Of a stretch of 5,393 nucleotides of DNA, positions 149-5,393 are shown piece by piece. A program made the position numbers and the translations under genes. The DNA lies in the IMG/VR virus record IMGVR_UViG_2698536508_000029; one strand, given 5' to 3'. Source of the DNA: a virus (lineage: Duplodnaviria; Heunggongvirae; Uroviricota; Caudoviricetes). Every line of letters starts with the position of its first letter. Within the stretch, counting starts at the first letter, position 1. The notes under the pieces are model-generated. The model was not told where the DNA came from and ran no database searches. It worked only from the letters and a program-made list of their open reading frames with translations.

Positions 149-2453
<2,305 letters not shown>

Positions 2454-2457
<4 letters not shown>

Positions 2458-3524
2458 GATATTTCAATTTTGTCCCACTCCCGCCCGCGACTGTCCCTGT
2501 AACGCGCCGCCATTGAATCTGATTTATGCCCGAGAAGACGTTGAGCAAACTTATCGCCAATCTGATTCCGGTATAGCCTCGCCGACAGGCTGCGCAGTTC
2601 ATGGAATGTTGGCGGGTCTCCATCAAATGAGAGTCCAGATGCATTTCTCGCCTTTGTAAAATACTTAGATACTGTTTTCGGGGAAAGCGGTTCGTGATGC
2701 GTTGATGCAATTATTGTTTCACTGCCGCTGGCCTCCCTGCATTTCTGTAGTGTATCAGCCAATGAGATATTGAGCGCGTCAATCGTTAGCGTCAGCGGAA
2801 TGGCGAGCTTAGCCCCTGTTTTACCCTGCTCAATGTGAAGATGGTTGTCGTTTATGTCTGACCATTTCATTCTGCATAAATCGCCTACTCTCTGCCCTGT
2901 AACGACAGCCAAATCCATTGCCAGCCTCAGCCAGATTGGGAGCGGTTCGGCTGCATGGTAAATCGCGACATATTCATTAGCTGTCAGTCTTGAACGCCTT
3001 ACTTCTGATTTTGCTGTGCGGGTTGCTGTTACCGGATTCGTAGCCACATGCCCCTCGGCTATTGCCTCACGAAAAACGTCAACAAGGGTTGACCTGATTA
3101 ATTTTGCGGAAGCCGCTTTACCTTCTGCTACGTAGGTGTTTAGCATTGCTGCCACCTCTTTCGTTGATATGTCAGCGAGCGGTTTGTCCGGCAATTTTCT
3201 TCGGATTGCCCTGATTTTGCTGGCGTAGTCGAGTAGAGTTTTCGGCCTGATACCCCTCTCGCTGAGGATTGTTTCATATCGGTCAAGCCACGCATGAAGA
3301 GTGATTGCGTCAGCGCCTTTAATTCTGTCTATCAGTGACTCACGCCTGTTCCCGGATAGCAACTCAATATTGGCCTGTATTGCTTCAGTGATTGCTATCC
3401 TCCTGTCTCGGCCTAATCCGAACTCTTTACCCGTCCTTGGGTCCCTGTAGCAGTAATATCCATTGTTTCTTATATAAAGGTTAGGGGGTAAATCCCGGCG
3501 CTCATGACTTCGCCTTCTTCCCAT
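2454..3524 (-). CDS. int: Tyrosine site-specific integrase, lambda Int family, 356 aa
   Basis: Same length as lambda Int. N-terminal ~55 residues (MGRRRSHERRDLPPNLYIRNNGYYCYRDPRTGKEFGLGRDRRIAITEAIQANIEL) match lambda Int from memory. Catalytic signature present: R in GQRVGDLC, K in QGKTGAKLAIP, HELRSLSARL, LLGHKSD and the tyrosine in AARYRD. Confidence 0.95.
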
Positions 3525-3720
3525 TTCTGATCCTCTTCAAAAGGCTACTTGTTACTGGTCGATTTAAGTCAACCTTTACCGCTGATTCGTGGAACAGATA
3601 CTCTCTTCCATCCTTAACCGGAGGAGGGAATATCCTGCATTCGCGCACCCATCGACGAACTGTTTCAAGGCTTCTTGGGCGTCGCTGGCGTGCATTCCAC
3701 TCCTGAAGTGTCAAGTACAT
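3502..3720 (-). CDS. xis: Excisionase Xis, 72 aa
   Basis: MYLTLQEWNARQRRPRSLETVRRWVRECRIFPPPVKDGREYLFHESAVKVDLNRPVT..LLKRIRNGKKAKS is near-identical to lambda Xis from memory (differs at about 2 residues). The 3' end overlaps the int start by 23 bp, as in lambda. Confidence 0.95.
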   Translation of the reverse strand: MYLTLQEWNARQRRPRSLETVRRWVRECRIFPPPVKDGREYLFHESAVKVDLNRPVTSSLLKRIRNGKKAKS

Positions 3721-3746
3721 CGCAAAGTCTCCGCAATTACACGCAA
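3707..3746 (-). promoter_or_regulatory. cII-dependent pI-type promoter (TTGC-N6-TTGC at 3746..3733, weak -10 near the xis ATG)
   Basis: Minus strand reads TTGCGTGTAATTGC-GGAGACTTTGCGA-TGTACT. This is the tetrad repeat TTGC-N6-TTGC of cII-activated promoters, with a poor -10 13 nt downstream overlapping the xis start, so the transcript would begin inside xis and express int without xis. Confidence 0.55.
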
Positions 3747-3767
3747 GAAAAGCCGCATTGATGCGGC
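3744..3767 (-). terminator. Hairpin plus U-tract (candidate intrinsic terminator or attenuator) upstream of xis
   Basis: Minus strand GCCGCA-UCAA-UGCGGC (perfect 6-bp GC-rich stem, 4-nt loop) followed immediately by UUUUCUUG; the U-tract overlaps the first TTGC of the pI site. Confidence 0.45.
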
Positions 3768-3825
3768 AATGGTAGGTCTGGATATCTTGAGAAATGAACA
3801 GGCCTCATTGAGTGTGAGGCTGTGG

Positions 3826-4170
3826 TTAGTCCTTGCGTAGCTCGCTAATTCTTCTGTAAGTCTCTGGTGCTTTGTTTCCGTGTATCTTCATTTCAGACTT
3901 CAACAGAGCGACGAGGGAATCCCATTCGTTGAGGATGCCTTTGAATGCCGGAACGCGCTTTGCAACCTTGTCGAATGAATCTCTGATTTCTGGAATCTGC
4001 TCAACAAGTGCAACGCATCGCCGGAAGTCTGCTGCGTCATGTGGAGCGCCGAAGTGATGACCATAGATATTCTTTTTCAGTCCACATGCGATTGAGGCAA
4101 GAGTTGCGCTACTGATGCCAACATCGCCAGTCGATTGCCATTTCAAAACCTTCATAGCCAAATCTGACAT
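3826..4170 (-). CDS. Hypothetical phage accessory protein, 114 aa
   Basis: ORF with ATG at 4170 preceded by GGAGA 7 nt upstream; stop TAA at 3826-3828. No transmembrane segment evident; contains a His-rich segment GHHFGAPHDAADFRRC. I could not assign it to any family. Confidence 0.7.
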   Translation of the reverse strand: MSDLAMKVLKWQSTGDVGISSATLASIACGLKKNIYGHHFGAPHDAADFRRCVALVEQIPEIRDSFDKVAKRVPAFKGILNEWDSLVALLKSEMKIHGNKAPETYRRISELRKD

Positions 4171-4180
4171 TTCTTGTCTC

Positions 4181-4208
4181 CATAAAACAAAACCCGCCGT
4201 AGCGAGTT
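4181..4208 (-). terminator. Hairpin with UACG tetraloop plus U-tract, ending ~10 nt before the 114-aa gene's RBS
   Basis: Minus strand AACUCGC-UACG-GCGGGUU (7-bp stem including one G-U pair) followed by UUGUUUUAU, then GGAGA and the ATG at 4170. Confidence 0.4.
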
Positions 4209-4260
4209 CAGATAAAAGAAATCCCCGCGAGTGCGAGGATTGTTATTCATTGCCGATATT

Positions 4261-4286
4261 CACCTTTATCGCGAACACCTTTACCG
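4261..4286. repeat. Two direct repeats CACCTTTAYCG (4261-4271 and 4276-4286), 15-bp period
   Basis: 10 of 11 positions identical, separated by 4 bp, lying immediately 3' of the 80-aa ORF stop in the 118-bp non-coding spacer. Confidence 0.35.
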
Positions 4287-4288
4287 GT

Positions 4289-4531
4289 TTATCTCCTTTG
4301 CATGGCGCGTAATTTTTTCAGATGGTTCTCCTGCTCTGTTTCAGCCAGAATTTGTCGGTATTCCTGGTGATCGATCCGTTCAAACAGTTCATTAAAATCG
4401 TTTATTTTTACCGACTGTGTTCGCCCATCCATTCTTCTGTACAACACAGTGTTGTTTATGCAGCGAAGAATTTTTATCGGGTAGCCGGCGCTATCGGTGT
4501 ATATCTGACCACGTTGAATCAGAGCGAACAT
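4289..4531 (-). CDS. Hypothetical small phage protein, 80 aa (possibly DUF4222-like; unverified)
   Basis: ATG at 4531 with GGGGA 7 nt upstream; the tracked 98-aa form starts at a TTG with no RBS. Beta-rich-looking N-terminal part (IQRGQIYTDSAGYPIKILR...VLYRRMDGRTQSVKINDF) and a basic C-terminal tail HLKKLRAMQRR. Confidence 0.65.
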   Translation of the reverse strand: MFALIQRGQIYTDSAGYPIKILRCINNTVLYRRMDGRTQSVKINDFNELFERIDHQEYRQILAETEQENHLKKLRAMQRR

Positions 4532-4605
4532 TCCTTTATCCCCAGCGGAAAAGCGAATACAGAATAAATGCCACCGCGATTGCAACTCCTACAGCGGTGA
4601 ATGCT

Positions 4606-4956
4606 TCAGGCCAATTCATCATTCACTCCCTGCGGCGGTTCTGGTAGCAGCATCCAGTACAAGGCGTTCCCTAACCACGATAAAGTGCCGTCGCTCAACT
4701 CCACGTATTCCTCTTGTACCTGTCCTGCCATATACTCACCGTGCTTTGAATAAATTAAAATCCAATCATCTTGAGCGGGCATTCGCTCACTACAGCTTAT
4801 CCAACCACCCGGACTTACCGGAGAGTTGCCAGTCTTACGCATGGCAATCTCCACGATTTCAACCATATCTCCTGGCAGAATTTTACAAAGCTGGCCAAAG
4901 CGCCTCTGCTGCCTGGCATACTCGAGGATGTGCTCCAGTTTGGTTCGATTAATCAT
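4606..4956 (-). CDS. Phage protein with C-terminal DUF551-like domain, 116 aa
   Basis: ATG at 4956 preceded by AAGGGAG. The C-terminal half (GWISCSERMPAQDDWILIY...LSWLGNALYWMLLPEPP) fits the W-I...P...W...WMPLPEPP pattern I recall for DUF551 phage proteins. Start overlaps the stop of the upstream ORF (ATGA). Confidence 0.75.
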   Translation of the reverse strand: MINRTKLEHILEYARQQRRFGQLCKILPGDMVEIVEIAMRKTGNSPVSPGGWISCSERMPAQDDWILIYSKHGEYMAGQVQEEYVELSDGTLSWLGNALYWMLLPEPPQGVNDELA

Positions 4957-5393
4957 GATTTATCTCCCTTAAGCATGGCTGCACGGCAGGCGTTCCAGCC
5001 TCTCACCTCTGCAATAGCTGCAACAGCATCAACTGTGTACATGCTAAGAGGGTTAGGCATTGGTTTTTCTTCCGGTACTACTGGCGATGGCTGTTTGGCT
5101 TCTAAATCAGCAATTCTGTCAACTACGGCATCGACAGCATCTGAAAAACTGAAACAGTTACTCCACTCAGGCCTATCCCCGGTTGTTGCGAAGTACATAT
5201 CAGCTAAAGCAGACTCAGCATGGTCACGCTCGTTAATGAGTTGCTCTTCGCTTTTTGAGGTGTACTGGCAATAGCGGACTCTACCATTTGTTCTTTTTTC
5301 AAGCAGCCATCTGATGATATTTTTCCCTGAAGGCTGCTGGGGAGATATTCCCCAGACGATAGTGACGACGCTGACGATTGTAGAAAATCTCAT
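4953..5393 (-). CDS. Hypothetical phage protein, >=146 aa (possibly 5'-truncated by the window edge)
   Basis: Open minus-strand frame up to the window edge, where an ATG occupies 5391-5393. Pro/Glu-rich linker AKQPSPVVPEEKPMPNPLS precedes a C-terminal segment MYTVDAVAAIAEVRGWNACRAAMLKGDKS. The true start cannot be fixed because upstream sequence is missing. Confidence 0.6.
   Translation of the reverse strand: MRFSTIVSVVTIVWGISPQQPSGKNIIRWLLEKRTNGRVRYCQYTSKSEEQLINERDHAESALADMYFATTGDRPEWSNCFSFSDAVDAVVDRIADLEAKQPSPVVPEEKPMPNPLSMYTVDAVAAIAEVRGWNACRAAMLKGDKS

Follow-up and report, generated by a model that had tools for sequence, protein, structure and literature searches.

Here, we describe a gene of 114 codons, ORF114, together with the hairpins that flank it, in a 5,393-nucleotide stretch of DNA referred to below as the window (IMG/VR virus record IMGVR_UViG_2698536508_000029; Duplodnaviria, Heunggongvirae, Uroviricota, Caudoviricetes). 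The left 2.4 kb of the window are Escherichia coli chromosome. The match to an uninterrupted yfaT, as found in K-12 and about 5,200 other complete genomes, ends at about position 2382, and the DNA rightward of this point belongs to a lambdoid prophage, whose left arm reads on the minus strand. The features are as follows, in window coordinates:

101-1837, yfaA, a DUF2138 gene in the E. coli chromosomal part
Left of the prophage, yfaT, a DUF1175 gene in the chromosomal part
2454-3524, minus strand, int, encoding a lambda-type tyrosine integrase with an arm-binding domain (Pfam scan)
3502-3720, minus strand, xis, encoding a lambda-type excisionase (Pfam Exc, E = 3.6e-41), the next gene downstream of ORF114
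3744-3767, minus strand, t'I, the hairpin GCCGCA-UCAA-UGCGGC (3752-3767) followed by the U-tract UUUUCUUG, immediately 5' of the pI/xis start region
3802-3820, minus strand, post-stop hairpin GCCUCA-N7-UGAGGC, starting 5 nt past the ORF114 stop codon and with a poor U-tract
3826-4170, minus strand, ORF114, a 114-aa coding sequence with an ATG start, homologue of phage 434 ORF114 and HK022p30 (phrog_1229), encoding a predicted seven-helix soluble protein
4177-4181, minus strand, Shine-Dalgarno sequence GGAGA (GGAG at 4181-4178), 7 nt 5' of the ORF114 ATG
4182-4209, minus strand, UACG-loop hairpin (stem 4190-4209, U-tract 4182-4189), identical to lambda 't4'
4210-4241, minus strand, tL4, a hairpin with a 9-bp stem (4220-4241) and a U-tract, annotated in phages 434 and HK022 and equal to lambda 't3'
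4289-4585, minus strand, DUF4222 gene, the upstream neighbour of ORF114, called by RefSeq in a shorter 80-aa form
4606-4956, minus strand, DUF551 gene
Running beyond the window edge, minus strand, 3' part of an Ea22-like gene

ORF114 is a real gene, as seen from its AlphaFold2 model, its thousands of homologues and a pN/pS of about 0.13 (54 alleles; 44 synonymous and 20 non-synonymous distinct changes), the mark of purifying selection. Its ribosome-binding site (RBS) is conserved in all 80 loci of a comparison set drawn from IMG/VR, each encoding a protein 98-100% identical to ORF114. Judged by sequence, it is also an already known gene, the same as ORF114 of phage 434 and HK022p30. Phage 434 (M60848) and HK022 (X51962) are the best annotated DNA matches of a 601-nt query around ORF114, with 96-97% nucleotide identity over the gene and protein identities (tblastn) of 97.4% to phage 434 and 98.2% to HK022; GenBank record M60848 names the gene 'ORF114' (protein AAA67902). 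In Salmonella phage c341, gp20 is labelled 'similar to HK022p30' and a rho-independent terminator is annotated just upstream. These homologues share with the window copy the length of 114 aa, 97-98% protein identity, the same RBS, the same post-stop hairpin and the position just 5' of t'I and xis, whereas 434 and HK022 differ from it in having, after the UACG hairpin and before ORF114, a 55-aa orf55 that brings a 3' hairpin of its own. The 1990-era GenBank sequences of phages 434 and HK022 already contain ORF114 and its terminators.

The gene is widespread. The same 601-nt query has matches in 356 phage records and is present in 2,795 of 5,426 complete E. coli genomes, about half, where ORF114 is carried by prophages that include the Stx-converting phages of EHEC. 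The protein matches phrog_1229 from end to end (E = 7.1e-52; residues 1-114 against profile positions 1-113 of 116). A first-pass annotation of this DNA had called ORF114 an orphan with no family match. The first term has to be dropped, given the 434 and HK022 homologues, phrog_1229, the presence in half of the complete E. coli genomes and a family of at least 2,814 clusters (below); the second stands for Pfam, NCBIfam, PADLOC and the PDB and fails for phrog_1229. Literature searches for ORF114, phrog_1229, WP_001281192, HK022p30 and tL4 found no relevant paper, and the ORF114 sequence is absent from the supplements of two phage accessory-gene screens.

An identical locus is present in E. coli O26:H11 11368 (RefSeq), where all genes lie on one strand downstream of cI/pL and ORF114 lies between exo and xis. 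The order there is an N-like gene, cIII, kil, gam, bet, exo, DUF1317 (orf60a), DUF1382 (orf63), a TraR-like gene (orf73), Ea22, DUF551, DUF4222, ORF114, xis and int. [quoted passage not shown] Genes of this region are transcribed early from pL in lambda and phi24B, and the region is dispensable and varies in gene set downstream of ea22, according to passages in PMC8614690 and PMC4195576. The lambda accessory genes ea8.5, orf55, ea22, orf61, orf63, orf60a and orf73 are likewise small, dispensable, transcribed from pL and early. The prophage shares the conserved block with lambda and then continues with DUF551, DUF4222 and ORF114, the last of which lambda itself lacks. Homology to a characterised lambda-family ea protein had been considered in the first-pass annotation, but ORF114 has no sequence or fold relation to the lambda exo-xis proteins, and its family reaches far beyond lambdoid phages.

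A terminator scan of positions 3400-4700 returned four sites, all intergenic and all on the minus (coding) strand, against 1.2 ± 1.3 in shuffled sequences. GC-rich stem-loops followed by a U-tract are found at 4220-4241, 4190-4209 and 3752-3767, and in weak form at 3802-3820. The UACG hairpin reads GAACUCGC-UACG-GCGGGUUU and then UGUUUUAU. Against dinucleotide shuffles, fold z-scores are -4.1 for the upstream hairpin pair, -3.0 for the UACG hairpin alone and -3.7 for the post-stop hairpin; the t'I hairpin (3752-3767), at -0.8 in a 61-nt context, is no more stable than shuffled sequence. The first-pass description of a 114-aa ORF with an RBS flanked by terminator-like hairpins is confirmed. The UACG hairpin before the RBS, placed there at 4181-4208, and the second hairpin and U-tract at 3744-3767 were both found, and the post-stop hairpin at 3802-3820 is present but starts 5 nt, not 4 nt, after the stop codon. 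The tL4 hairpin lies just outside the region marked at that stage and had been missed.

In lambda, the tL4 and UACG hairpins were predicted as terminators t3 and t4 by two programs, and the 3' hairpin of orf55 was predicted as t5 (PMC4195576, Table 4; Bloch et al. 2014). Positions 4220-4241 of the window match t3 (tL4) at 21 of 22 hairpin bases, with the sole difference in the U-tract, and positions 4190-4209 are identical to t4. Next to xis the arrangement differs: lambda has t5 there, whereas the window and 434 have another stem (GCCGCA/UGCGGC) that comes with the ORF114 module, and the hairpin at 3752-3767 occupies the t'I position of phage 434. The 434 records M60848 and OL657226 annotate t'I between ORF114 and xis, and tL4 is annotated upstream in the 434 record and also in the HK022 record. 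Rfam had no match (E <= 1) anywhere in the window. The hairpins are predicted to be ordinary in-line terminators of the leftward early operon, halting unmodified polymerase. The post-stop hairpin, 35 nt from the t'I hairpin, may be a weak terminator or a stabiliser of the mRNA 3' end.

A scan for sigma-70-like promoters between 3400 and 4700 on both strands yielded 0 sites, with 1.8 expected. The U-tract of the UACG terminator runs directly into the ORF114 RBS, and therefore any promoter would need to lie 5' of both tandem terminators. Inside the DUF4222 gene there may be a promoter of an unusual or activator-dependent kind; its transcripts would still meet both terminators.

These findings bear on the first-pass proposal of a moron-like insulated cassette, by which ORF114 would be transcribed alone in the lysogen and give the host a defence or exclusion function. 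The moron concept reportedly comes from HK97 and HK022 and from the work of Juhala and colleagues in 2000. Like ORF114, lambdoid morons are extra DNA in some genomes, absent between the same neighbours in relatives, and have a hairpin downstream. ORF114 is inserted between genes that are adjacent in relatives (lambda orf55 abuts xis, whereas in 434 and HK022 ORF114 sits between them), its presence or absence between otherwise near-identical phages is itself a moron property, a hairpin directly follows its stop codon, and its slot beside xis is described as variable in passages of PMC8614690. Lambdoid morons have, unlike ORF114, their own promoter and an atypical composition. Here, no promoter-like site was found in the interval scanned, and the upstream terminators leave no room for one before the gene. 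The GC content of ORF114 is 47.2% against 47.1% for the prophage part, and its GC3 is 0.487 against 0.475-0.538 in its neighbours. Moreover, ORF114 lies in series with the other genes of the pL operon and points the same way, PADLOC gave no hit, and the upstream hairpins are lambda sequence that in lambda precedes another gene. Homologues also occur in Nonanavirus, a genus of virulent phages, with no integrase in the locus shown; a host benefit expressed from a prophage makes no sense there. Terminators without a promoter argue against a prophage-expressed exclusion function in particular. We therefore regard a moron as a very improbable description of ORF114. The term 'insulated' does not fit either: the upstream hairpins precede orf55 in lambda, the distal one is t'I, and the hairpins are module junctions (below).

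During lambda induction, antiterminated pL transcripts pass terminators, and this serves as the basis for the read-through that we infer here. ORF114 would have no promoter of its own. RNA polymerase from pL, made termination-resistant by a phage antiterminator, would read through tL4 and the UACG hairpin, transcribe ORF114, cross the post-stop hairpin and t'I, and continue into xis and int. The N-like protein of the prophage matches Pfam N_peptide weakly, at 18.4 bits against a cut-off of 27.9. In the newer 434 record, OL657226, the CII-dependent promoter pI overlaps the xis start directly after t'I; an intact xis mRNA must therefore start further upstream and cross ORF114. By the pL route, ORF114 would appear alongside Xis, both early in infection and following induction. 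Taken together, the sequence, the GenBank annotation and the biology of lambda suggest that it should be made only from antiterminated pL transcripts and be silent in the repressed lysogen.

A three-way alignment with lambda shows how these elements are arranged. On the pL strand, 5' to 3', the lambda order is ea8.5, tL4 hairpin, UACG hairpin, orf55 with its 3' hairpin, and xis. In 434 and HK022 the order is tL4 hairpin, UACG hairpin, orf55, ORF114, post-stop hairpin, t'I and xis, and in the window it is the same except for orf55, with ORF114 directly after the UACG hairpin. The slot beside xis is thus found in nature with orf55 only (lambda), with orf55 and ORF114 (434, HK022) and with ORF114 only (window), and the first-pass view of it as a variable cargo position is upheld. 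Because the UACG hairpin precedes orf55 in lambda, it is lambda sequence and not specific to ORF114.

Among the 80 comparison loci, the block of homology around ORF114 ends on the upstream side between 4187 and 4249 in 62 (at 4187 or 4194 in 51, and within 4224-4249 in 11) and on the xis side between 3740 and 3797 in 47. Its upstream partner varies, being an intact orf55, a 3' remnant of orf55, the tL4/UACG pair or another GC-rich stem before the same U-tract; a 3' remnant of orf55 is noted for 933W in a passage of PMC8614690. The downstream gene is excisionase-like in every locus and is of six sequence types, three of them confirmed by Pfam (Exc, HTH_17 and DUF1233). The post-stop hairpin accompanies ORF114 in 78 of the 80 loci; its loop and its spacing from the stop codon vary. 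Its stem is near-invariant, with one wobble-preserving and one disruptive change. No compensatory double changes were seen in this stem across the 80 loci, and support for the hairpin therefore comes from conservation and not from covariation. Since the block ends at hairpins and the post-stop hairpin travels with the gene, ORF114 and this hairpin (about 3797-4187) form one mosaic module. The hairpin and U-tract segments are the module junctions at which lambdoid phages swap cassettes. The locus is classical lambdoid mosaicism with no new mechanism, and a clean example of cassette exchange at terminator hairpins.

It might be argued that the hairpins are not functional terminators and are conserved merely as linkers giving microhomology for cassette recombination. 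Homology breakpoints do cluster in the hairpins and their U-tracts, the orf55 indel is bordered by near-identical GCGG-UUUU...UAU(U)GGAGA stretches, and the post-stop hairpin has no good U-tract. Three of the four hairpins, however, have a canonical GC stem and U-tract, and the 434, HK022 and c341 records annotate hairpins as terminators. In loci with a replacement of tL4, the same U-tract is preceded by another GC-rich stem, and the terminator architecture has therefore been kept. Terminator and recombination roles are moreover compatible. A role as linkers only is unlikely on this evidence.

The explanation that we favour, and hold with good confidence, is that ORF114 is the last accessory gene of the pL operon, the gene known as 434 ORF114 or HK022p30, expressed by antitermination, with hairpins that serve as in-line terminators and mark cassette junctions. 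The arrangement would then be the normal end of a lambdoid pL operon, an observation that is real but ordinary in kind. What gives the locus its remaining value is the protein, which represents a large phage-specific family with no Pfam entry and no recognisably related solved structure.

Pfam and NCBIfam scans of ORF114 returned no family, and a Pfam scan of 65 family members returned noise only. PADLOC-DB, used as a check for defence systems, had no match at E <= 1 to ORF114 or to the three genes upstream of it. Sequence searches of the PDB, with the single protein and with a 65-sequence profile, found nothing below E = 0.5. AlphaFold2 predicts a seven-helix bundle (pLDDT 93.5, pTM 0.87), for which a fold search of the PDB found no structural neighbour; a search of BFVD returned uncharacterised phage proteins only. 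Assignment to HEPN or HTH proteins was rejected, with no motif and no significant fold match. ORF114 has no transmembrane segment or signal peptide, and net charge is not consistent across the family. The label 'lipoprotein' in AP012530 was likewise rejected, on the missing signal peptide, the low maximum of hydrophobicity and the lack of conservation at Cys29.

A word-indexed search retrieved close relatives from Enterobacteriaceae, among them several chimeras that include adjacent genes, and an exhaustive profile search retrieved at least 2,814 cluster representatives (50% identity) at E <= 1e-3, with 623 at E <= 1e-10. By tblastn, members occur in phages of Vibrio, Salmonella (P22-like), Yersinia, Cronobacter, Mannheimia, Aeromonas, Providencia and Arthrobacter, a host range of Proteobacteria and Actinobacteria. 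Besides temperate phages, the family includes the virulent Nonanavirus phages, in a locus shown without an integrase gene. Of 90 distant loci, 68 had a recognisable family ORF and were dereplicated to 42 groups by neighbourhood clustering, in which no conserved partner gene was found and no neighbour family was common to more than 4 of the 42. ORF114 would therefore act without an obligate partner. A toxin-antitoxin or multi-gene defence system was rejected for want of a partner gene and of a PADLOC hit. From its model and these searches, ORF114 is predicted to be a compact soluble seven-helix protein of a very large, phage-only family, with no catalytic signature.

Source names in the family are all 'hypothetical' with the exception of one 111-aa member (P0259), labelled by JGI as UTP:GlnB (PII) uridylyltransferase. 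Another member (P0168) carries the ORF114 domain at the C-terminus of a CCA-adding-enzyme/HD protein. These two, together with seven residues that are invariant in 65 diverse members (S20, P43, D45, D48, R51, C52 and W83), would suit an accessory domain that handles RNA or nucleotides, for example by targeting or regulating tRNA repair or nucleotidyltransferase activity, instead of one that only binds proteins. The CCA-type fusion is, however, the single one among the 150 matches listed, the invariant residues lie at helix N-termini or are core tryptophans and may be purely structural, and the other fusions are to unrelated small domains. Further multi-domain members have Zn-ribbon-like N-termini, a tandem duplication or one of several unannotated extensions; among ten other N-terminal extensions, Pfam gave no more than two weak matches, both below threshold (Zn_ribbon_8 and LIG3_BRCT), and in seven further multi-domain members it gave none. 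We consider RNA or nucleotide handling quite improbable.

The place of ORF114 beside xis could instead point to a developmental modulator tied to the integration module, tuning excision and integration or the lysis-lysogeny decision. In all 80 close loci the gene immediately precedes an excisionase-like gene, albeit one of six sequence types; it has the same position in P22-like phages, and a separate lineage has it upstream of a DUF4224 gene and a lambda-type integrase. Exo-xis genes influence the lysis-lysogeny decision according to passages in PMC8614690 and PMC7093339. Where an operon closes with xis-int, however, its final cargo gene will automatically adjoin xis, and lambda does without ORF114. 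The family is also found among early genes with no integrase nearby, in Nonanavirus, Vibrio phages and several metagenomic phage contigs, which argues against a function restricted to lysogeny or excision. A modulator of this kind thus seems unlikely, if somewhat less so than RNA or nucleotide handling.

The most likely role for ORF114, in which we have low confidence, would be that of an early accessory factor binding a host or defence component, like other small exo-xis and 'ea' proteins. More broadly, it is possible, though we put this forward only tentatively, that the ORF114 domain is an undescribed and very widespread fold of phage early proteins, used to neutralise a defence component or a conserved host factor, as a new counter-defence or host-takeover family. 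If so, the fusions to the CCA-adding/HD protein and to Zn-ribbon-like N-termini would be clues to its target.

In E. coli prophages, the gene for ORF114 (the 114-aa protein encoded at 3826-4170, minus strand) has an excisionase-like gene immediately downstream of it, and this neighbour comes in six distinct sequence types. P22-like Salmonella phages likewise carry the family gene in this pre-integrase position, and in a separate lineage it precedes a DUF4224 gene and an integrase of the lambda type (loci L010-L089, L154-L173, L090 and L180). Two features of the window lie on the opposite, 5' side of ORF114:

4953-5393, minus strand: C-terminal part of an Ea22-like gene, running off the right end
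4220-4241, minus strand: tL4 hairpin, equivalent to tL4 of phages 434 and HK022 and to lambda t3, lying 10 nt 5' of the UACG hairpin

In E. coli O26:H11 11368 the complete Ea22-like product has 185 aa. The stop codon of its gene and the start codon of the DUF551 gene (4606-4956) share an ATGA at 4953-4956. The tL4 hairpin is a fourth and stronger terminator hairpin, omitted from the list in the first-pass annotation; ORF114 therefore lies behind two tandem terminators. In the predicted fold of 4171-4192, weak A-U and G-U pairs join the U-tract of the UACG terminator to the GGAGACAA Shine-Dalgarno region, and this modeled pairing could dampen the translation of transcripts that read through the terminator.

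The window lacks orf55, a 55-aa gene present in lambda, 434 and HK022. The corresponding junction maps to 4182-4193 (versus 2053-2290 of comparison locus L001), between two nearly identical stretches, GCGG(G)TTTT...TAT(T)GGAGA, one being the 3' half of the UACG hairpin and the other that of the orf55 hairpin. In many related loci, all that remains of orf55 is its final ~60 nt. On the other side of ORF114, the post-stop hairpin has been removed from two loci (L082 and L086) by a short internal deletion (CCGCC|GGCCTG) directly after the stop codon, and is thus dispensable, at least occasionally.

ORF114-like domains are also found joined to a CCA-adding-enzyme/HD protein, joined to Zn-ribbon-like N-terminal modules, or tandemly duplicated (family members P0168, 558 aa; P0095/P0160/P0196; P0067), and these arrangements are possible clues to the target of the domain. 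Several database "homologues" are chimeric, combining part of ORF114 with dATP/dGTP pyrophosphohydrolase, ERF, Ea22 or Kil (P0015, P0017, P0028, P0036, P0049, P0051, P0052, P0063 and P0219), and probably reflect recombination joints, frameshifts or assembly errors at the ORF114 mosaic hotspot. The "lipoprotein" label carried by the homologue in one Stx2a phage record (GenBank AP012530, hit H55) looks wrong, because the protein has no signal peptide and C29, the cysteine behind the label, is not conserved.

The prophage interrupts yfaT (DUF1175; window 2370-2460). The match of the chromosomal side to intact yfaT stops at ~2382, and the ORF called at 1807-2439 ends in residues of phage origin. 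The same yfaT-int junction is shared by 177 of 5,426 complete E. coli genomes.
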